Of a DNA stretch of 17,146 nt, positions 1,730-11,696 are shown one piece after another. Position numbers and translations under genes: made by a program. This stretch comes from Candidatus Hadarchaeota archaeon (GTDB lineage Archaea > CAYQAE01 > CAYVLA01): positions 1-17,146 of the forward strand of contig CAZUNO010000040.1 of NCBI GenBank assembly GCA_964621445.1, written 5' to 3'. Each line of letters opens with the position of its first letter. The first letter of the stretch is position 1. The notes under the pieces were generated by a model. That model did no database searches, was not told where the DNA came from, and saw only the letters and a list, made by a program, of their open reading frames with translations.

Positions 1730-2776
1730 TCACCAAGCATGGTTTGTGCCGTCAACAATTGGATATGAGCCATAAGAGCGGCCGGCTTCCATCATGGCTA
1801 GGTAGTTATCTGGCTTGACCGCGGGATGTATGCTGTTGCTTGAGGCCAGGACGTATCCACCTTGGGGGGCAGCTCTTTGTATAGTATCCTTTACGGTGGC
1901 CACCACGTCGGTAGGTGAACCGGTGGATAGGAGGTGTCCGCAATCTATGTTACCCATAAGGCAGATGCGATCTCCGTATTGGTGTTTGACCTTGCCTATA
2001 TCCATCCCTGCAACCGGCTCCAGGGGGTCTATTGCAGTTATTCCTGCATCGACCATGAGGTCAAGAATGGGCCAGATATTGCCATCGGTATGTTTGATAT
2101 AGGGTATGCCGTGTTTCTTTGCCGTCCTTATGGTTTCCTTCAGGTAGGGCAAAACAAAGGACTTGAAATGGTCAAGGGACATTATGGGCCCGGCGCGGTT
2201 GCAGTAATCGTCACCGGTAACTATGGCATCAGCGCCAATCTCTATAGCCCTCTCTATGACCTCCTTCTTGTAATCGGTGACCATCCTGGCAAGCTTTTTG
2301 GCAAATCCCGGGTTCCTGTAGTAATCTATGAGCAGGTTTTTCATTCCACGGAGATAGTGTGAGAACTCAAAGGCCTCGTGAGATAGAAACACAACCGCTC
2401 TCTCTCCCCCAAATCTGTCAACCGTGTTTTCAAGGGTTTTCAAACGGTGGTCCGCGTGGGGATCAGGCGGGGTGTAGTTGGAGAGAGCCTCCTTCCCATC
2501 TATCGGTCCACCGCCTGGGTAGGTGAGCCCGCTGGGTTCAATCTTCCATGTAATATTCCACTCATCAATGTAGGTGGTCTTGTCAACCCTTTCAAGCATC
2601 TTTGTATCTTCAAAGATGGTGACCCCGTCATGGTTCTCCTTCTCAGCGAAGTCCAGATATGACATGTCACCGGCCAATGCCTGTATTACTGGTCTGTTGA
2701 TTATGAGTTCCCAGATGGGAACTCTATCCGGCTCCTCCAGCTGAAGGGCCCTTAACATCCTCTGACGTCCATTCAT
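1730..2776 (-). CDS. Uroporphyrinogen decarboxylase (URO-D) superfamily protein, MtaA/CmuA methyltransferase-like rather than HemE
   Basis: N-terminal MNGRQRMLRAL..EEPDRVP, then GADAIVTGDD, PYIKHTDGNI, IDPLEP, LMGNIDC and GGYVLASSNSIH. It lacks the HemE RQAGRY motif. Start taken at ATG 2776 (GGGGT upstream); the ORF could extend to 2800. Confidence 0.85.
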   Translation of the reverse strand: MNGRQRMLRALQLEEPDRVPIWELIINRPVIQALAGDMSYLDFAEKENHDGVTIFEDTKMLERVDKTTYIDEWNITWKIEPSGLTYPGGGPIDGKEALSNYTPPDPHADHRLKTLENTVDRFGGERAVVFLSHEAFEFSHYLRGMKNLLIDYYRNPGFAKKLARMVTDYKKEVIERAIEIGADAIVTGDDYCNRAGPIMSLDHFKSFVLPYLKETIRTAKKHGIPYIKHTDGNIWPILDLMVDAGITAIDPLEPVAGMDIGKVKHQYGDRICLMGNIDCGHLLSTGSPTDVVATVKDTIQRAAPQGGYVLASSNSIHPAVKPDNYLAMMEAGRSYGSYPIVDGTNHAW

Positions 2777-2884
2777 GGTTACCCCAAGAAAGGGTTGCAC
2801 AATGCCTTATGATTCTTTTTCATCCAACCGGCTATGATTTATCTATCTTTGAAACCAGGGGGAGGGGATTTGAGTTGAGGTATC

Positions 2885-4273: not shown

Positions 4274-5494
4274 TCAAATCTCCAGTCTGGTGGAGGATAC
4301 CTCTCGATAAGCTCTGCGCCTAATCATCAGAGTCCATAGTATGGTCCCCGACATGATGGCGGCCGAGGTTATGGCTAACCACTCCGATACGTATACCCAG
4401 AACATTGCCTCGTCCTTGAGGGCAACGGCATCGCTGGTGATCTCGGCTACCTGATTTGATAGGGAGTCCATTGTATCCACGGATGTAGCATAGTCCTGTT
4501 GGAGGTAGTAAGCGGTGGCCCGTGTCACATCGCCTTCCAGGTCACCCAGCTTTTCCGAAAGGGTCACCGTGTTCGCCCCAAATCTATAGGCCCAGTCCAT
4601 CATGGAAAGAACTAGTGACTTTTCCTTCTGGAATGAGTATATAAGCGATCGAGCCTCCCTCCTTGCGTGGATGTCGGTTATCATCGGTCGTCCTAGGGAG
4701 TAGAGGATTAGGTTTGTGGCCATATCAATTGCGTATGGGTTTTCTCCCCGTGAGTTGGGGGTTGTAGACCACCACTGCCTGTTAAACTCATCCCCGCAGA
4801 CCCAGGTCAGGCCGGGGTTGGATCCATAAGGTTCCCAAGACACCAGCCAGGGAAAATCAACCGGTTGCATATATGCCCAGATCTTGGCCCCCTGACGGGG
4901 CTTCATCTTGGCGTATGCATCCCCGGTCACCTTTTCCATTCCAAGATCTATGAAGGGAAGGAATACCGGGTTCCTATTTCTAACAAATCGCACTTTCCAG
5001 CTTTGGTGGAAATAGAAATCGTACTCGGATATGGGCATTAGATCATACATTATTGTGGGTTCAAATGCGTGGATCCACCCCGGGCCGAAGCTTGATAGCG
5101 AGGGTATCCCTGCTTCCCTGAAGGCATAGTCTATGTCCCTGAACTGCCTGGAAGTATAATGTTGTATGCGGGCGTCAGAAAAAACAAAGAACTGGTAGCT
5201 CTCCACGAGGGCATTTCTGGTCCTCGGGAAGTAAATCCGGTCTATTTTCCGCTTCTCCCTATCGCCCATATCTACTGGAACCGGCTCCACGCTGTACTTG
5301 AATAGGGGATCTTGTATGAAAAATCCGGTGAACGGACAACGCGTTGGATCCACGGAGCCGATGACAAAGCAATTTATGCGTTCCGGGGAACCCTGGACGA
5401 TAGCTGCGTTTATACAAAAAAGGACCGCCAGGATAGTTGGAAAAGCATGGCGAATATTAACTTTGCCGAATGGTAGTAGATGAATGGTTCTCAT
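4274..5494 (-). CDS. Secreted, C-terminally membrane-anchored hypothetical protein (divergent GATase1-like domain, helical stalk, TM); paralog of 8906..10141
   Basis: N-terminal hydrophobic signal (FPTILAVLFCINAAIV) and a C-terminal TM followed by a basic tail (FWVYVSEWLAITSAAIMSGTILWTLMIRRRAYREVSSTR). It aligns by eye with the 411-aa ORF. Confidence 0.8.
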   Translation of the reverse strand: MRTIHLLPFGKVNIRHAFPTILAVLFCINAAIVQGSPERINCFVIGSVDPTRCPFTGFFIQDPLFKYSVEPVPVDMGDREKRKIDRIYFPRTRNALVESYQFFVFSDARIQHYTSRQFRDIDYAFREAGIPSLSSFGPGWIHAFEPTIMYDLMPISEYDFYFHQSWKVRFVRNRNPVFLPFIDLGMEKVTGDAYAKMKPRQGAKIWAYMQPVDFPWLVSWEPYGSNPGLTWVCGDEFNRQWWSTTPNSRGENPYAIDMATNLILYSLGRPMITDIHARREARSLIYSFQKEKSLVLSMMDWAYRFGANTVTLSEKLGDLEGDVTRATAYYLQQDYATSVDTMDSLSNQVAEITSDAVALKDEAMFWVYVSEWLAITSAAIMSGTILWTLMIRRRAYREVSSTRLEI

Positions 5495-5751: not shown

Positions 5752-5823
5752 GATCAATCTTACTGGCGACTTTGAGTATCCCATTCTTGTCATTGAAGTC
5801 AGGCATTTGAAGAGGCGGTATTG

Positions 5824-8800
5824 ATGAGCAGTAAAAGTATCTCCAGTCAAGGTGAGCTTCAAAAACTCGGCCAAAGGGCTAAATCAAGTATCGAAAACTC
5901 ATCCGCAAGAACCATCGTCAGGATTCATATGGGAACCTGTGGTATTGCGTCCGGGTCCCGTGAGGCGAAAAATTACCTGGAGGAAAATCTTGAGGATTTG
6001 GGTCTCGATCTGAGGGTCCTGGAGGTCGGATGCTGTGGTGCCTGCCATCAGGAACCCATGATAACCGTGATTGACCCTGATGGAACCGAAACCATGTACG
6101 GCGATCTGGATCAGGAAAAGCTTGATATCATAATCAACGATCACCTGGCGAATGGAAACATCGTCGAGGATCTAAAGACGGATGGAAATTCTCCCTTTTT
6201 CCAGAAACAGGAGAAGAGGGTTACCCGTCTCCTGGGAGTAGTGGACCCCTACGACATACTCGATTATTTGGCATATGACGGTTACCGAGGTTTGGCCAAA
6301 GCGCTTTCCATGAACCCTGAGGAAACGATCGCTGAGGTAAAGGAGTCCGGACTAAAAGGTCGGGGAGGGGCCGGGTTCCCTACTGGTGTAAAGTGGGGAT
6401 TTGCCGCCAATGCCCAGGGCGATAAAAAATACATGATCTGCAATGCGGATGAGGGGGATCCCGGAGCCTACATGGACCGGGCAATAATCGAGGGAAGTCC
6501 CCATTCTGTTTTGGAAGGCCTGGCAATTGCGGCTCATGCAATAGGTGCAAATGAGGGCTTCGTATATATTCGGGCGGAGTACCCGCTTGCAGTTAAGATA
6601 CTAAGAAATGCCATAAAACAGGCCCGAGAGTACGGATTACTGGGAAAGAATATTCTGGGAAGCGGCTTTAATTTTGATATACAGATATACCTCGGCGCGG
6701 GAGCATTCGTTTGTGGCGAGGAGACGGCCTTAATCGCATCCATCGAGGGAAAAAGGGGTAATCCGGTGCCAAAGCCGCCTTTCCCGGCCAATAAGGGCCT
6801 TCATGGAAAGCCCACTATAATAAATAACGTCAAGACATTGAGCAACGTACCCCTGATCTTCCTAAAAGGTGCGGACTGGTTCTCCTCGGTGGGTACGGAG
6901 ACGAGCAAGGGAACCATGATCTTCTCCCTTACAGGAAAGGTCAAAAGAGCAGGGCTTATAGAAGTTCCACTAGGTATACCACTGGGAGACATCATATTTG
7001 ACATCGGAGGGGGCATTCCTTCAGGCAAGGAGTTCAAGGCCGTCCAGCTAGGTGGCCCATCCGGGGGTTGTATACCTTCTCAATATCTCAACACACCCGT
7101 GGACTACCATGATATCGAAGCACTGGGTGCCATAATGGGCTCCGGTGGCATGATCGTCATGGACGAGGATTCTTGCATGCCCGACATGGCCAGGTTTTTC
7201 ATGGAGTTCACCAAGGAGGAATCCTGCGGGAAATGTACGCCATGCAGGGCAGGCATACCCCAGATGCTCCGGCTATTGGACAAGATAGTCGAGGGTGGGG
7301 CCATACCCGAGGATCTGGAGAGGCTAGAGGATCTTGCACTCACCATCAAGGATTGCTCCCTTTGTGGCCTCGGACAGACAGCGCCCAATCCAGTTCTGAG
7401 CACCCTTCGTCACTTCAGGGATGAGTATCTTGCTCACATCATCGATCAGAAGTGTTCTGCGGCAACCTGTGAGACGTTATTCCGATCACCCTGCCAGCAC
7501 GCATGTCCTCTAGGAAATGACATTCCTGGCGCATTATGGCTGATAAAGCAGGGGCGTTACGAGGATGCCTTTAAGTTGATAAGGAGATTCAATCCCTTGC
7601 CATCGGTTTGTGGCAGGGTCTGCGTCCACTTTTGTGAGAACAAATGTAGAAGGTCTCAGATCGATGAAAACCTATCCATTAATCACCTATTGAGGTGCGC
7701 CTCCGATCAGGCCTTGAAAGCTGGTGTTGATTATCATCCCGATATCCAGGAGGATAGGAATCAGCGGATCGCTATCATTGGAGGTGGACCGGCGGGTCTA
7801 TCCGCTGCTTACGACCTGGCTCTCTACGGATATAAGGTCAAGATATTCGAGGCCACATCAGAGGTGGGGGGCATGTTGATCTGGGGTATTCCCGCCTACA
7901 GACTCCCTAGAGATGTTTTCAGGGCCGATGTAAAGGTATTACGAGACTTGGGGGTGGAGATTGAGGTAAATAGGAAGATAGAGGACCCCCAGGAGCTCCT
8001 GGAGAAGGGATACGATGCCGTTTTCGTGGCCACGGGCCTACCGGAGGGTAGAAAGCTGGGCCTGGAGGGAGAGGACCTTGAAGGGTCATATGAAGGCCTA
8101 GACTTACTGAGACGTATCAACTCCGGTGAGCAAATCGAAGTCGGCAATTCCGTGGTAATCATCGGTGGAGGAAACGTTGCCATCGACGTAGCCAGAGTAT
8201 GTAGAAGAATGGGCGCAGAGGATGTCAGGATACTCTACAGGCGTGAAAGGAAGGACATGCCGGCAATTGATAATGAGATCGAAGATGCCCTGGAAGAGGG
8301 AGTGACCATCATTCCTTTGACGACCGTGGAGAGGGTTCTTGGAAAAGGAGGTAAGGTATCTGGCTTGGTATGCTCCCGCATGGAGCTTGGGGTTTTCGAT
8401 AGCAGCTGTCGCAGGAGACCCAAAAAGATGGAGGACTCCGAGTTCCAGATGGAGGTAGATACTTTTATCCAGGCCGTGGGACAGAAACCCGAGGAGGGAG
8501 TGTTTGAGGGTAAGCTGGAGCTAAATGACAGGGAGTTGATATCGGTGAATAACAGAACACTTGAAACCGATGTCAAAGGCATTTTCGCAGGCGGAGATGC
8601 AGTAACTGGTGCAAGTACGGTGGTCGAGGCCATTGCTGCCGGTCAGAGTGCTGCACTGTCCATACATTGCCACGTCCAGGGCCGTCAAATTCCCGAGAGG
8701 ATGCGGAGGGAAATCGGTGAAAGTCTGGACCTTCCCTACGAAGAGGTGGAAGTTGATGAGGGTCAACGTGTTAGCTGGGGTTGCTGCCCTCCCAAGGAAA

Positions 8801-8895
8801 GAGTAGCCGACTTCAGGGAAGTGATCAAGGGTTACTCCAAGGGAGAAGCCCGAGAAGAGGCCTCCCGCTGCCTAAGATGTGATATAAGCTATTGA
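5824..8895 (+). CDS. Fused HydB/NuoF-like NADH:FMN module and GltD/NfnB-like NAD(P)H:FAD oxidoreductase with an N-terminal thioredoxin-like [2Fe-2S] domain
   Basis: N-terminus MGTCGIASG...VGCCGACHQEP. NuoF motifs GRGGAGFPTG, CNADEGDPGAYMDR, GAGAFVCGEETAL, GGPSGG and the [4Fe-4S] motif ESCGKCTPCR...SLCGLG, followed by H...C.A..C. GltD part: PCQHACP, CGRVCVHFCENKCRR, IIGGGPAGLSAA, IGGGNVAIDVAR, YRRERKDMPA, FAGGDAVTG, EASRCLRCD. The start is TTG 5821 or ATG 5824. Confidence 0.92.
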   Translation: MSSKSISSQGELQKLGQRAKSSIENSSARTIVRIHMGTCGIASGSREAKNYLEENLEDLGLDLRVLEVGCCGACHQEPMITVIDPDGTETMYGDLDQEKLDIIINDHLANGNIVEDLKTDGNSPFFQKQEKRVTRLLGVVDPYDILDYLAYDGYRGLAKALSMNPEETIAEVKESGLKGRGGAGFPTGVKWGFAANAQGDKKYMICNADEGDPGAYMDRAIIEGSPHSVLEGLAIAAHAIGANEGFVYIRAEYPLAVKILRNAIKQAREYGLLGKNILGSGFNFDIQIYLGAGAFVCGEETALIASIEGKRGNPVPKPPFPANKGLHGKPTIINNVKTLSNVPLIFLKGADWFSSVGTETSKGTMIFSLTGKVKRAGLIEVPLGIPLGDIIFDIGGGIPSGKEFKAVQLGGPSGGCIPSQYLNTPVDYHDIEALGAIMGSGGMIVMDEDSCMPDMARFFMEFTKEESCGKCTPCRAGIPQMLRLLDKIVEGGAIPEDLERLEDLALTIKDCSLCGLGQTAPNPVLSTLRHFRDEYLAHIIDQKCSAATCETLFRSPCQHACPLGNDIPGALWLIKQGRYEDAFKLIRRFNPLPSVCGRVCVHFCENKCRRSQIDENLSINHLLRCASDQALKAGVDYHPDIQEDRNQRIAIIGGGPAGLSAAYDLALYGYKVKIFEATSEVGGMLIWGIPAYRLPRDVFRADVKVLRDLGVEIEVNRKIEDPQELLEKGYDAVFVATGLPEGRKLGLEGEDLEGSYEGLDLLRRINSGEQIEVGNSVVIIGGGNVAIDVARVCRRMGAEDVRILYRRERKDMPAIDNEIEDALEEGVTIIPLTTVERVLGKGGKVSGLVCSRMELGVFDSSCRRRPKKMEDSEFQMEVDTFIQAVGQKPEEGVFEGKLELNDRELISVNNRTLETDVKGIFAGGDAVTGASTVVEAIAAGQSAALSIHCHVQGRQIPERMRREIGESLDLPYEEVEVDEGQRVSWGCCPPKERVADFREVIKGYSKGEAREEASRCLRCDISY

Positions 8896-8905
8896 TATCT
8901 TGGGG

Positions 8906-10141
8906 CTACCTCGTTGAACGGGTTATACGGACCTCCTTGAATGCAGAACGCCTTATCATAAGGGCCCAGATGATGGAGCCGCAAATAATCAGGGTGGAGG
9001 CAACGACCATCCACTCGATAACATAGACCCAGAAAAGAGCATTCTCCTTGGCCTCCACGGCCATTTGTTCCACCTTCTTGGTTTCAGATATTGCGTCTTC
9101 TATCAAACCAAGAGCTTCCTGGTATTCTCCTTCCAGGTAAAACCCGTCAGATTCCTCCCTCAGGGACCTTATCTGATACATGCTCTGCTCCACTTCGCCC
9201 ATATTTGCACCGAACTTGTCGGCAAATTCCACCAAACTCAATAGCAGCTTGTTTTCCACCCGGTACTGGTGCCATTTCCTGCGGAGTTCATGTACGGTCA
9301 ATAAATCGTCAGGGAGGGGGAAGTCCACCGTGTAGTAGTAGGTGTGGAGCACGCTATCCTGAAAATACTGCCACTGGTTGAAATCACACCCGAAGACGCC
9401 AAATATATTCTGACAACCAACGAATCTTCCCTCCCCCACATCCCAATAGAACCAAAGCGGGGTTCTCTTGGTATCATCCGATTCGATGATCACCGTGGAG
9501 CCATCCTTCGGGGCGACGAAGTTGTAGGGGAAGAAGCAGGGAGCCTCCTGCCAGGGTATGCTCTGGGCCAGCTCATTCTCCGGGGCTGCAATTCTTAGTT
9601 TGGGAGTGTAGGCCTTGGAATGTTCCCCCCTCTCGCATTTCACCGGCAGGACTTCATCCAACACGGTATCTCCCCAGCTCGGGAATGCACCATAGCCACC
9701 AAAACCCTGAGAGCCACCAGTCATCAGGCAACCCAGCCCGTCATTGAGAACACTGTCACGGAACCATGCAATATTCTGGGGGGTGAATATCCGGCGATCG
9801 ATATTTGCCAGTAAAATCAGGTCGATGCTTCCTACAAAGGAATGATAGCTTCTCGGTAGATAGATCCTGGCCACTCTTTTGGCGTGGGTGAGGTCTATGG
9901 CCGGACTGGCAAGACTGAGGTGTGGGACTGTGGCACGTACATCGAATCTGGGATCTTCCATTGCAAATAGAAAGACCTCGGCCCACCCTGACCATCCGGA
10001 AACGGGGAGTCCGCCGAGTAAGGCCCTTATTCTATTGGTCTCCGGATCGGTCCGGGTTTCCATACCATTGGTTGATACCAATAGGAAGAGGGAAAAAACT
10101 ACCATTACCGTTATCTTGGCCCGACCAGGCATTTTACCCAC
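8906..10141 (-). CDS. Secreted, C-terminally membrane-anchored protein with a putative class-I glutamine amidotransferase-like (GATase1_like/DUF1355) domain
   Basis: Signal peptide (KITVMVVFSLFLLVS). DLILLANI, GLGCLMTGGSQGFGGYG..WGDTVLDEVLPV and WDVGEGRFVG match the GATase1-like pattern. An acidic helical stalk precedes a C-terminal TM and the tail LMIRRSAFKEVRITR. Confidence 0.8.
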   Translation of the reverse strand: MGKMPGRAKITVMVVFSLFLLVSTNGMETRTDPETNRIRALLGGLPVSGWSGWAEVFLFAMEDPRFDVRATVPHLSLASPAIDLTHAKRVARIYLPRSYHSFVGSIDLILLANIDRRIFTPQNIAWFRDSVLNDGLGCLMTGGSQGFGGYGAFPSWGDTVLDEVLPVKCERGEHSKAYTPKLRIAAPENELAQSIPWQEAPCFFPYNFVAPKDGSTVIIESDDTKRTPLWFYWDVGEGRFVGCQNIFGVFGCDFNQWQYFQDSVLHTYYYTVDFPLPDDLLTVHELRRKWHQYRVENKLLLSLVEFADKFGANMGEVEQSMYQIRSLREESDGFYLEGEYQEALGLIEDAISETKKVEQMAVEAKENALFWVYVIEWMVVASTLIICGSIIWALMIRRSAFKEVRITRSTR

Positions 10142-10222: not shown

Positions 10223-10999
10223 TTACATAGGTCGGAGGGTTCCGAAGAATACCTGCCAGGCGAGGGCCGTCTTAGCAACGAGACTGAGAATTATGTAGAA
10301 CCTCTCTCCATACAGGTAATCGCTCCATGGCCCGATCTTCTTGTATTGAAGTATCATGTTGATGGCAAAGACGTTGAAGAAGAAGGCTATGGATATGTAT
10401 ATGTATAATACAAAGTCCGGTATGGAACCCGCGGACGCAATGCTCGCCCCGGCGAAGTAAATACCAATGACGGCCCAGGGCACTATCCCGGCAAGGACCC
10501 CGATGTAATAGGCGGCCCAACTCGTTTCCTCCGTGGTTTGGTTATGCAGTTCCATCATAAGGCCGCAGAGATTCATGATGGCGTTGACCACGAAGATGGG
10601 GAGCAGCGTCCCGATGTCATAGATGCCCACTAGCATGGCAATGACAACGATCATGACTGAGGAGCTAATCGAGTACTCGTACCATCGGGCGTAGTTTATG
10701 TGCTTCTTTAGGTTCTTAACGTACCAAGGATAGCCCCAGGGGGAAGCTAGAGTGAAATGAGCAATGGCAGATATCAGCAGGAAGAGGGCGACAAGTGGCC
10801 CAATTGGGATTTCCATAAGCGTGTTGGTCTCTAGAACCAGAGATCTGGTCGCTTCATCGAATGTAAGGTATGAGGCATTCAGCGGAAGCGAGAAATCGTT
10901 GCTTAATATAAACATTAATCCTGATTGGATCAGGTGTATAACGCCCATCACGGCATTAAACCGTCTTAACTTTGGAAATTTTTCTTCATCAGAACTCAA
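10223..10999 (-). CDS. heR: Heliorhodopsin
   Basis: Seven hydrophobic segments and a basic N-terminus (KLRRFN, consistent with inverted topology). Motifs: TM1 His/Gln (IHLIQ), TM2 His (AIAHF), TM3 RWYEYSISSS (counterion Glu), GLMMELHNQ, LQYKKIGPW..Y..GE..YIILSLVAK (retinal Lys, codon 10271-10273) and C-terminal GTLRPM, all as in the Thermoplasmatales HeR. The start is TTG 10999 (GGGGG upstream) or TTG 11014. Confidence 0.97.
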   Translation of the reverse strand: MSSDEEKFPKLRRFNAVMGVIHLIQSGLMFILSNDFSLPLNASYLTFDEATRSLVLETNTLMEIPIGPLVALFLLISAIAHFTLASPWGYPWYVKNLKKHINYARWYEYSISSSVMIVVIAMLVGIYDIGTLLPIFVVNAIMNLCGLMMELHNQTTEETSWAAYYIGVLAGIVPWAVIGIYFAGASIASAGSIPDFVLYIYISIAFFFNVFAINMILQYKKIGPWSDYLYGERFYIILSLVAKTALAWQVFFGTLRPM

Positions 11000-11043
11000 A
11001 GGATTGCCCCCCAAGATTGGGATTCAAAATGAACTACCCCTAC

Positions 11044-11520
11044 TTAAGTATTCCGATTGGGATGGCCAAGTTCATAATTTCCGATGAGTCCCCAGTCCTC
11101 TACTTTCTCCTTGGAGCCTCTCTTGAAATGAATCATAACGGGAGCTTGATCTAGTTTCCTGCTCCTGATCAGCTTTCTATCTCCGTATTGAATGGCCTCG
11201 AGTACCAGCGGCATCTCCTTCCTGAATATCGATTCCCGCCAATTGGCCGGCCCTAGAACAAACCCACCGCTGACATGGCAGTATATATGGAGCTCGTTTC
11301 CCGATCCGGTCTGCTTCCAGGCCGCCAGGATTTCATCCCTCATGAGTCGAGTATATATTCCGGATATCTGGGACTTGTCATATTCGAGGCCGACGGTGAG
11401 AAAAAGATCGCCGGTTAAGTCGGAATGGGTGAGTGTATATTTACGAGAGCTTATAGGTCCATCTTCCGTAGCACCCGGGAGGTAATGAATCTCTAACTTA
11501 TCCGGTTGAAGGCGACTCAT
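11044..11520 (-). CDS. Staygreen (SGR) family protein, homolog of plant chlorophyll Mg-dechelatase
   Basis: Full set of Staygreen motifs: L.P.KL, RKYTLTHSDLTGDLFLTVG, YTRLMRDEILAAW, LHIYCHVSGG, IFRKEMPLVLEAIQYGD, L.QAPVMIHF and E.WG.I..Y. The start is ATG 11520 (MSRLQPDKL) or ATG 11541. Confidence 0.92.
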   Translation of the reverse strand: MSRLQPDKLEIHYLPGATEDGPISSRKYTLTHSDLTGDLFLTVGLEYDKSQISGIYTRLMRDEILAAWKQTGSGNELHIYCHVSGGFVLGPANWRESIFRKEMPLVLEAIQYGDRKLIRSRKLDQAPVMIHFKRGSKEKVEDWGLIGNYELGHPNRNT

Positions 11521-11696
11521 GAACGCTTTCTGCTTTTCCATTTAGTCATCCAATGGATAAAAAACAGTTGGCGAAGTGTCCAAATATTGCTCGACCTATC
11601 AGGTTAGCGTGCCCCACGGTATCATAATTCCACAATATTTATTAGATGTCCCGCTCCGGTTTGGAGGCACGACCCGTACGGTGGAAGGTTTGTGAA

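Follow-up and report, generated by a model that had tools for sequence, protein, structure and literature searches.

A Staygreen gene (SGR, of the Mg-dechelatase family) lies directly upstream of a heliorhodopsin gene (HeR) on the minus strand of contig CAZUNO010000040.1 from Candidatus Hadarchaeota archaeon. The contig was analysed as a whole and is referred to as the window; it comprises 17,146 bp of a 3.2-Mb genome that is 96% complete. Adjacency of SGR and HeR is far beyond chance, and the same pair recurs in other lineages. We propose that SGR and HeR form a small, probably co-transcribed light-response module in which SGR would strip Mg from chlorophyll-type photosensitisers and HeR would provide the light input, probably by binding SGR, a proposal which, taken in full, we consider to have an even chance of being correct. 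Its parts differ in strength. That the two proteins work in one light-related process is probable, whether the SGR substrates are chlorophyll-type pigments is evenly balanced, and direct binding of HeR to SGR, judged by analogy, is possible with somewhat less than an even chance. The genomic context suggests that Staygreen is a new client class for regulatory HeRs and would be the first to point to a native role for prokaryotic Staygreen.

Gene pair, encoded proteins and host

SGR occupies positions 11044..11520 (minus strand), encoding 158 aa from ATG 11520 to a stop codon at 11046-11044, within an open frame extending to 11541 (165 aa). HeR follows at 10223..10999 (minus strand), encoding 258 aa from TTG 10999 in an open frame that reaches TTG 11014 (263 aa), the gap being 29 nt from TTG 11014 or 44 nt from TTG 10999. 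Each gene is present as a single copy in the 3.2-Mb genome. An earlier reading of the letters alone (the sequence-only reading) had described intact SGR-family and HeR genes on the same strand, SGR first, 29-44 nt apart, and these coordinates, the Pfam matches given below and the two TTG codons confirm that description. Both gene starts were refined by comparison with L112, a 59.7-kb metagenome contig that is syntenic across the whole window. The SGR start is most likely ATG 11520 (M8 of the longer frame), because L112 lacks the seven upstream codons and nearly all homologues begin at the aligned MSRL. The HeR start is most likely the second TTG, 10999, with a conserved G-run ahead of it at 11012-11007; the nearest HeR homologue, P0123 (92% identity, 258 aa), begins at the aligned TTG. 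The spacer at 11000..11043 (minus strand), 44 nt whose sequence was read, contains this G-run, which is Shine-Dalgarno-like and ends 7 nt ahead of the HeR TTG, and no terminator-like site was found in it. L112 keeps the G-run, and also the SGR tail AATCGGAATACTTAAGTA. The Shine-Dalgarno-like G-run before the HeR TTG suggests co-transcription of SGR and HeR.

The 165-aa SGR frame matches the Pfam Staygreen profile PF12638 over positions 2-146 of 147 (E 4e-41, 140.7 bits, cut-off 27) and aligns end to end, over residues 8-162, with the 'Staygreen domain-containing protein' of PDB 7y5y (1.7e-51), which is the characterised AbSGR-h. Two SGR alignments, A1 with 24 and A4 with 71 sequences, both of which include HeR-linked SGRs, were used for comparison of individual residues. 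The equivalents of AbSGR-h R26, T29, T31, H32, D34, R61, D62 and R95 are invariant in A1 and A4, and those of Y28, E63 and D114 show no variation in A1 and conservation of 90% or more in A4. In the 165-aa frame the numbering is offset by +7 (H39, D41, D69, R33, Y35, T36, D121); counted from M8 it is identical, so that the catalytic and structural residues stand at the same positions as in AbSGR-h. As shown by mutagenesis, AbSGR-h requires H32, D34 and D62 in order to be active and R26, Y28, T29 and D114 in order to fold (PMC8531759), and all of these residues are retained in the window SGR. In vitro, the Anaerolineae protein AbSGR-h takes the Mg out of chlorophyll a and of chlorophyll a derivatives, as described in PMC8531759 and PMC11006732. 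Thus, the window SGR is intact and looks functional, dechelation being known for homologues of ∼55% identity. The public gene call for the window SGR (P0004) is a 99-aa C-terminal piece starting at M67, whereas the full domain needs the 158-aa frame; the pair may therefore have escaped automated surveys. Rare longer SGR proteins also exist, P0244 (530 aa) and P0245 (296 aa), one with a Peptidase_S8 (subtilase) domain and one with PF13027, and the fusion of a protease with a chlorophyll dechelatase would be consistent with pigment-protein breakdown.

The 263-aa HeR frame matches PF18761 over the entire profile, positions 1-242 of 242 (E 4.9e-99, 331 bits), and the NCBIfam equivalog NF038020 with 356 bits (cut-off 100), and its closest solved structure is an archaeal HeR, PDB 6is6 (3.7e-92). 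In 263-aa numbering, K248 (LVAKTALAW) and E113 (RWYEYS) align with 6is6 and are invariant in 80 HeRs; we take K248 to be the Schiff-base lysine of the last helix and E113 to be the glutamate counterion of helix 3. The counterion position is marked in the alignment by 7clj, the structure of an E-to-D variant. From these residues the window HeR is intact and looks functional. Bacterial HeRs are described, in the accessible text of PMC11109279, as having no ion pumping, a long photocycle and an inverted topology. HeR domains were also observed inside frames of 788, 579, 432 and 433 aa (G208:C74:4875-5606, G659:C6:18215-18934, G791:C1:509288-510007 and G744:C66:1958-2674, respectively), which may represent HeR joined to other domains or simply long stretches that happen to lack stop codons.

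The RNase P RNA of the genome is archaeal (203 bits with respect to a gathering score of 84) and no type-II reaction-centre gene was found in the genome, which agrees with the archaeal, non-phototrophic host assumed in the sequence-only reading. For BchG, only sub-cut-off UbiA-type matches were obtained in the genome, as in most control genomes. Sequencing runs containing 98% of the sampled words of the window are labelled as microbial mat metagenome and may be its source, and the window is likely to derive from a phototrophic mat, in which chlorophylls are abundant.

Recurrence of the pair and the genomic context of SGR

An SGR-alignment scan with one genome per species identified 591 relatives, and the 80 most similar loci were examined up to 10 kb on each side. 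HeR is present in the flank of 14 of these 80 best loci (of 591 relatives). It lies within 400 nt on the same strand in 12 of the 80, HeR preceding SGR in 11 and following it in one, while in two further loci among the best 80 the genes are 4.5 and 8.3 kb apart. The 14 HeR-flanked loci are labelled Chloroflexota, save for one Actinomycetes metagenome-assembled genome. In 15 pairs with HeR first, the distance from the HeR stop to the SGR start is 12, 12, 19, 19, 38, 42, 45, 45, 66, 77, 82, 97, 166, 172 and 378 nt, that is, 12-97 nt in 12 of the 15. Clustering of all open reading frames (ORFs) of the loci indicated that linked loci share nothing but SGR and HeR, the flanking genes being different.

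Co-occurrence was also observed in three samples of genomes, each drawn from one class. Among 401 Anaerolineae genomes, 25 carry SGR, 62 carry HeR and 14 carry both, with direct same-strand adjacency in 10 of the 14; of the genomes with both genes, one has an SGR cut by a contig end and one has a pair with a HeR remnant only. Among 401 Dehalococcoidia genomes (SGR in 6, HeR in 76), all six SGR genomes have HeR, with one adjacent pair and one convergent pair at 2.5 kb. In the class of a Bathyarchaeota genome, represented by 161 genomes, SGR is above cut-off in five and HeR is present in 19; all five SGR genomes have HeR, and in two the genes are adjacent. In G965, a Bathyarchaeia-class genome, SGR precedes HeR on one strand with a gap of ∼130 nt, and in G967 SGR and HeR are divergent, 75 nt apart, with SGR frame-shifted. 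Other SGR genomes were checked individually: the two genes are 434 kb apart on a Bathyarchaeota chromosome and on separate contigs in the AbSGR-h-type genome and in a Thorarchaeota genome, HeR was not found in an Alicyclobacillus and a Hermodarchaeota genome, and a Euryarchaeota genome has a HeR fragment only. Fisher tests of co-occurrence, performed with the three centre genomes excluded and with kinship ignored, gave p = 4.8e-6, 2e-4 and 1e-4. The sequence-only reading had left room for the adjacency being found only in this genome or close relatives; this is not the case, because the pairing is recurrent and non-random across lineages. Adjacency recurs in Anaerolineae, Dehalococcoidales and a Bathyarchaeia-class genome, and no HeR-SGR fusion is present among the three longer SGR proteins found by a search that is weak evidence if blank.

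Two decayed pairs were noted. At L096 (G234:C27, 4447-5161) a HeR remnant, consisting of the last ∼40 residues, stands ahead of an intact SGR in a genome whose other loci include a complete HeR and a further SGR, and at L233 (G967:C10, 6197-6657) SGR is split by a frameshift beside an intact divergent HeR.

Trees were constructed for both proteins. In the HeR tree (135 sequences, quick search, LG+G4), the window and L112 group together (99*) inside a 19-row archaeal-type clade (98*) which includes the family relatives G001 and G003, and in which none of the relatives' HeRs is SGR-linked. Twelve rows with HeR first and one with SGR first are scattered among 35 unlinked HeRs in a 54-row Anaerolineae clade (99*), and two Dehalococcoidales rows with HeR first are located in a distant clade (100*). 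SGR-linked HeRs therefore belong to three or more clades of the HeR tree that are separate and well supported, and the G965 HeR is only 40% identical to that of the window. The SGR tree (91 rows) is poorly resolved; the HeR-first label undergoes eight changes on it, with starred branches forcing at least three, and none of 500 shuffles gave as few label changes as observed. Because linked HeRs lie in separate clades, both gene orders occur and the flanks differ, SGR and HeR have been brought or kept together repeatedly, in both orders and in two domains. Movement of the pair as a unit from Chloroflexota was considered and rejected, as the window HeR nests in the archaeal-type clade with the HeRs of its family and the SGR tree cannot place SGR.

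A census of SGR neighbours was made in 91 deduplicated SGR loci, in which crude ORFs were clustered by BLAST and the representatives of the clusters were compared with Pfam. At a distance of up to three ORFs from SGR, HeR and MFS transporters are the joint top neighbours with 13 loci each, the MFS gene being immediately upstream on the same strand in seven. DNA photolyase (8), alpha/beta-hydrolase (6), flavin amine oxidase (6), DUF1295 (5), AhpC/redoxin peroxiredoxin (5), NmrA+DUF2867 (5), TspO/MBR-like (5), MsrB (4) and Abhydrolase_5 (4) genes are found within the same distance, and within four ORFs there are CarH-type MerR+B12-binding regulators (4), YbgA-like DUF1722 (5), MsrA (3), phytoene synthase CrtB (4) and ABC exporters (5). 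Among the strings that recur are amine oxidase-photolyase-peroxiredoxin-SGR, SGR-MsrB-MsrA and TspO-like-SGR, and L099 carries the string Rieske/VanA_C oxygenase-MFS-HeR-SGR-alpha/beta-hydrolase, found in part in L067. We estimate that photolyase near SGR in 8 of 91 loci is far above chance for a gene of one to three copies per genome. The gene content around SGR suggests a context of light and photo-oxidation with a tetrapyrrole flavour. CarH/LitR-type B12 photoreceptors control light-induced photolyase/carotenoid regulons, and MerR+B12 regulators, photolyase, YbgA-like, CrtB and CrtI-like genes stand beside SGR in several genomes; the window is different in that HeR is its sole light-related neighbour, and the regulon idea comes from gene order alone. 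The notion of the sequence-only reading that the pair deals with light and photosensitising tetrapyrroles thus gains independent support from loci elsewhere, in which SGR lies near photolyase, CarH-like, MsrA/B, peroxiredoxin and TspO-like genes, and its interpretation overall is partly supported.

Several of these neighbours were characterised further. In the TspO-like cluster, 6 of 10 members match PF03073 (E ≤ 0.01), the best with 30.6 bits relative to a cut-off of 24, and two of three members scored singly exceed the cut-off. The profile of this cluster (A7) gave no match to solved structures at E ≤ 0.01, so that the TspO-like assignment is a Pfam assignment alone. These TspO/MBR-like membrane proteins, of 260-300 aa with a C-terminal extension, are encoded upstream of SGR in Bathyarchaeota, Dehalococcoidia and Anaerolineae (L012 9065-9865, L075 9076-9858, L101 95-928, L020 125-988 and, at the locus of the crystallised AbSGR-h type, L056 5366-6151). 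A pheophytinase identity of the SGR-adjacent alpha/beta-hydrolases was considered and dropped in every case, the matches being to generic esterases or meta-cleavage hydrolases and to one uncharacterised structure. In Anaerolineae, a Rieske + VanA_C oxygenase gene recurs a short way upstream of HeR, whether or not SGR is present (L067 6941-7966, L099 2508-3500 and L218 3930-4922); its class resembles plant pheophorbide a oxygenase, and no PaO domain was found in it.

Proposed function and competing explanations

In three cases, HeRs have been reported to bind and light-modulate the product of an adjacent gene, namely glutamine synthetase (PMC9529153), photolyase (PMC9769723) and OmrDE, an ABC transporter (PMC11109279). 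Ten groups of HeR neighbours are listed in the accessible part of the last source: glutamine synthetase (GS), NAD+ synthetase, photolyase, MerR, TerC, ABC transporter, SDR, alpha/beta hydrolase, DUF2177 and DUF2238 (PMC11109279). The SGR-HeR pair resembles such HeR-client operons, in which the genes of a non-pumping HeR and of an enzyme or transporter share a strand with only some tens of nt between them and the adjacency is kept in several taxa. Same-strand adjacency with a short spacer (44 nt) is found in the window, adjacency is kept across Anaerolineae, Dehalococcoidales, a Bathyarchaeia-class genome and the window's genus, and around SGR-HeR loci there are also photolyase and alpha/beta-hydrolase genes, which represent two of the published groups. 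The pair differs in that Staygreen is outside the ten published groups, the window pair is archaeal with SGR upstream, and the system is known here from genes alone. The sequence-only reading knew of no description of the pairing, and the full-text literature searched likewise contained no relevant paper joining heliorhodopsin with Staygreen or dechelatase, with the proviso that unlabelled cases may sit in supplementary files. Staygreen is unmentioned in the genomic-context section of the preprint by Bulzu et al., the accessible text of PMC8531759 has no mention of rhodopsin, operon or neighbouring genes, and that of a 2026 preprint on prokaryotic chlorophyll degradation (10.64898/2026.03.19.712979) has no mention of operon, gene cluster or neighbours.

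In the proposed mechanism, HeR would be a retinal-binding, non-pumping membrane light sensor and SGR a soluble Mg-dechelatase. SGR would strip Mg from chlorophyll-type pigments that originate from phototroph debris and are taken up by, or partitioned into the membrane of, a heterotroph living among phototrophs. Mg removal would be the first step of photosensitiser disposal, and in some bacteria neighbour-encoded alpha/beta-hydrolases and MFS/ABC exporters could act next. HeR would confer light dependence, most likely by binding SGR at the cytoplasmic membrane face and altering its activity or placement. Binding is taken as the most likely route because it has been reported for HeR with adjacent-encoded glutamine synthetase, photolyase and ABC transporter. 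A complex prediction for HeR (A3) and SGR (A4), run without controls, gave a score of 0.00 with respect to a mark of 0.32, a result that counts neither for nor against such binding.

The beginning of the plant PAO/phyllobilin pathway proceeds from SGR to the alpha/beta-hydrolase pheophytinase and then to the Rieske oxygenase PAO, according to the accessible text of the source (10.64898/2026.03.19.712979). SGR likewise comes first in the mechanism proposed here, and the L099 string, and L067 in part, echoes the three plant enzyme classes. In contrast to the plant pathway, the prokaryotic hydrolases are generic, the oxygenase is VanA_C and not PaO, none of these genes is present in the window, and the prokaryotic strings include a light sensor and exporters. 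In a broader form of the proposal, which we regard as unlikely, HeR-SGR would be the core of an unrecognised light-triggered defence of non-phototrophs against chlorophyll phototoxicity, with light-activated HeR acting as dock and switch in the membrane, SGR demetalating (bacterio)chlorophylls that reach this membrane from phototroph debris, and neighbours (alpha/beta-hydrolases, TspO-like proteins, Rieske oxygenases and MFS/ABC exporters) finishing disposal. A defence of this kind would provide a native function for two orphan families, prokaryotic SGR and many HeRs, and would trace the entry step of plant chlorophyll breakdown to microbial photoprotection.

Several observations weigh against the proposal that SGR and HeR form a light-response module. 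The genome counts ignore the relatedness of the sampled genomes. Either gene can do without the other: among the sampled Anaerolineae, HeR is missing from 11 of the 25 genomes with SGR, and SGR from 48 of the 62 with HeR. The gene of AbSGR-h itself (L056), unlike that of the window, is not beside HeR, which is absent within 7.5 kb upstream and 10 kb downstream and is located elsewhere in the genome, on another contig; a TspO-like gene stands three ORFs upstream. The arrangement is also young in the window's own family. Of 40 relatives examined, SGR was found only in G003, of the same family and another genus (53% identical), in which SGR and HeR are on different contigs, each more than 5 kb from a contig end. 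In G001 and the class-level relative G004, HeR is present and SGR was not found, and among 80 metagenome loci with the HeRs closest to that of the window (57-91% identity), many of them on short contigs, SGR occurs only in L112. The pair in this family is therefore a genus-level arrangement, restricted to the window and L112. With respect to the proteins, no residue separating 13 SGR-linked from 34 unlinked Anaerolineae HeRs survives correction (smallest p 0.012, 526 tests), and the lack of a fusion points the same way. SGR has also diverged ∼5x faster than HeR between the window and L112, with nonsynonymous substitution values (dN) of 0.266 and 0.053, respectively, the SGR value being similar to that of the neighbouring MBL-fold gene; synonymous divergence (dS) is saturated, and dN values alone are usable. 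The Blh retinal-synthesis domain PF15461 has no match in the genome, the control genomes being equally silent, and HeR-only microbes are mostly without a retinal pathway, as stated in the accessible text of 10.1101/2021.02.01.429150. Pheophorbide a is described as a strong photosensitiser, Mg removal alone leaving phototoxicity (accessible text of 10.64898/2026.03.19.712979). Demetalated products are still photosensitisers, and detoxification therefore needs downstream steps or export, for which candidate genes exist in some bacterial loci and not in the window. Lastly, at least one 'light' neighbour is present in 36 of 91 SGR loci, a count that is descriptive only because the 'light' set was named after the data had been seen.

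Some of these observations favour the main rival, co-regulation without contact, in which SGR and HeR would each belong independently to a regulon for light or photo-oxidative stress. Being switched on together, for example from a light-controlled promoter, would have made them neighbours, and HeR would have a separate role and not touch SGR. SGR is found equally often in strings without HeR (with photolyase, Msr or TspO-like genes, or downstream of a CarH-like MerR+B12 gene), each gene often occurs without the other, neither a linked-HeR residue signature nor a fusion is seen, and divergent (G967) and convergent (G804) arrangements exist. Against this rival, HeR is the joint top SGR neighbour (13 of 91 loci), and most pairs are immediate and co-directional, the gap being 12-97 nt for 12 of the 15 HeR-first pairs. 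Moreover, published adjacent-gene HeR cases proved to be physical partnerships, as far as the accessible accounts extend, and a sensor without an output domain needs a partner. We consider co-regulation without contact to be rather unlikely, while keeping it as the explanation with which the module has chiefly to compete. The absence of any functional link is highly improbable. It would require a lineage-specific rearrangement or hitch-hiking insertion in the window and, elsewhere, shared descent or cassette transfer among Chloroflexota, and it draws on the restriction of the pair to one genus (window and L112) within the window's family, on the relatedness of the sampled genomes, and on the poorly resolved SGR tree, which permits one or few origins inside Anaerolineae, starred branches forcing at least three changes only. 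Against it, the pair is present in distinct HeR clades belonging to two phyla of Bacteria and Archaea, with either gene order and with differing flanks, and co-occurrence is enriched in three separately sampled classes; by a reasoned estimate, single copies among a few thousand genes would have a negligible probability of being adjacent by chance in 10 of 14 genomes.

A further alternative concerns the substrate rather than the partnership. SGR might act on a non-chlorophyll target, either another metallated tetrapyrrole or a pigment-protein, chlorophyll dechelation in vitro then being a side activity; it might, for example, dock on HeR as plant SGR does on light-harvesting complexes, or process a chlorin serving as a second chromophore of HeR. 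PMC8531759 and 10.64898/2026.03.19.712979 describe the activities of bacterial SGRs as highly variable and 'promiscuous' and give their physiological role as unknown. In the host there is neither a reaction-centre gene nor a BchG match above cut-off, and TspO-like tetrapyrrole-binding membrane proteins recur beside SGR. Conversely, the AbSGR-h chlorophyll-dechelation residues are invariant in HeR-linked SGRs, the likely source of the window is a phototrophic mat rich in chlorophylls, and a chlorin bound to HeR has no evidence of any kind, so that a non-chlorophyll target is improbable.

The value of the light-response module lies in the fact that one gene pair makes two questions testable, namely the role of Staygreen in organisms that do not make chlorophyll and what HeRs signal to, with natural pairs to choose from in Archaea and Chloroflexota. 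If the proposal is correct, Staygreen would be an eleventh client class for the regulatory-HeR model and a retinal photoreceptor would be tied to tetrapyrrole chemistry. It would also suggest that plants derived the committed step of their chlorophyll breakdown from a light-stress system of microbes, and would bear on chlorophyll turnover in mats and sediments.

Surrounding genes of the window

Upstream of the pair, SGR and a LivK-like binding-protein gene are separated by a divergent intergenic region at 11521..11650 (no strand assigned), which contains an AT-rich block at ∼11608-11650 that is a candidate promoter region. This block, ∼43 nt at 11608-11650, is near-identical in the window and L112, and lies upstream of, and overlaps, the LivK-like start (annotated ATG 11646). 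Identity between the window and L112 is 84% for LivH, 84% for LivM, 80% for LivF, 77% for LivK, 64% for the MBL-fold protein, 63% for SGR, 91% for HeR, 79% for the GATase1-like protein and 72% for the NuoF-GltD fusion.

A GATase1_like gene (PF07090, Pfam 1.7e-9) at 8906..10141 (minus strand) follows HeR in the same direction after 81 nt and is a possible third member of the unit in the window's genus only. Paralogues of this gene adjoin SGR in G003 and HeR in L117, and none was found beside the SGR-HeR pair in Chloroflexota loci. The adjoining frame at 5821-8895 (plus strand) encodes a 1024-aa fusion of a NuoF-like part (2Fe-2S thioredoxin-like, FMN and 4Fe-4S) with a GltD-like NAD(P)H-flavin oxidoreductase. 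The fusion is flanked on both sides by paralogous GATase1_like (PF07090) genes, at 8906-10141 and 4274-5494 (both minus strand), and the block of the fusion and the two GATase1_like genes is syntenic in L112.

A second tetrapyrrole link, through URO-D-like genes located by HeR in relatives, was considered and dropped, these genes being distant, MtaA/CmuA-like and far below cut-offs. In the window's family, a URO-D/MtaA-CmuA-like gene is found just downstream of HeR on the same strand, at 174 nt in G001 and also in L114. The genes of this type are located at L010 5650-6660 (G001), L114 7134-7952, L009 3399-4523 (G003) and window positions 1730-2800, and those of the relatives are ∼25% identical to the URO-D-like gene of the window.

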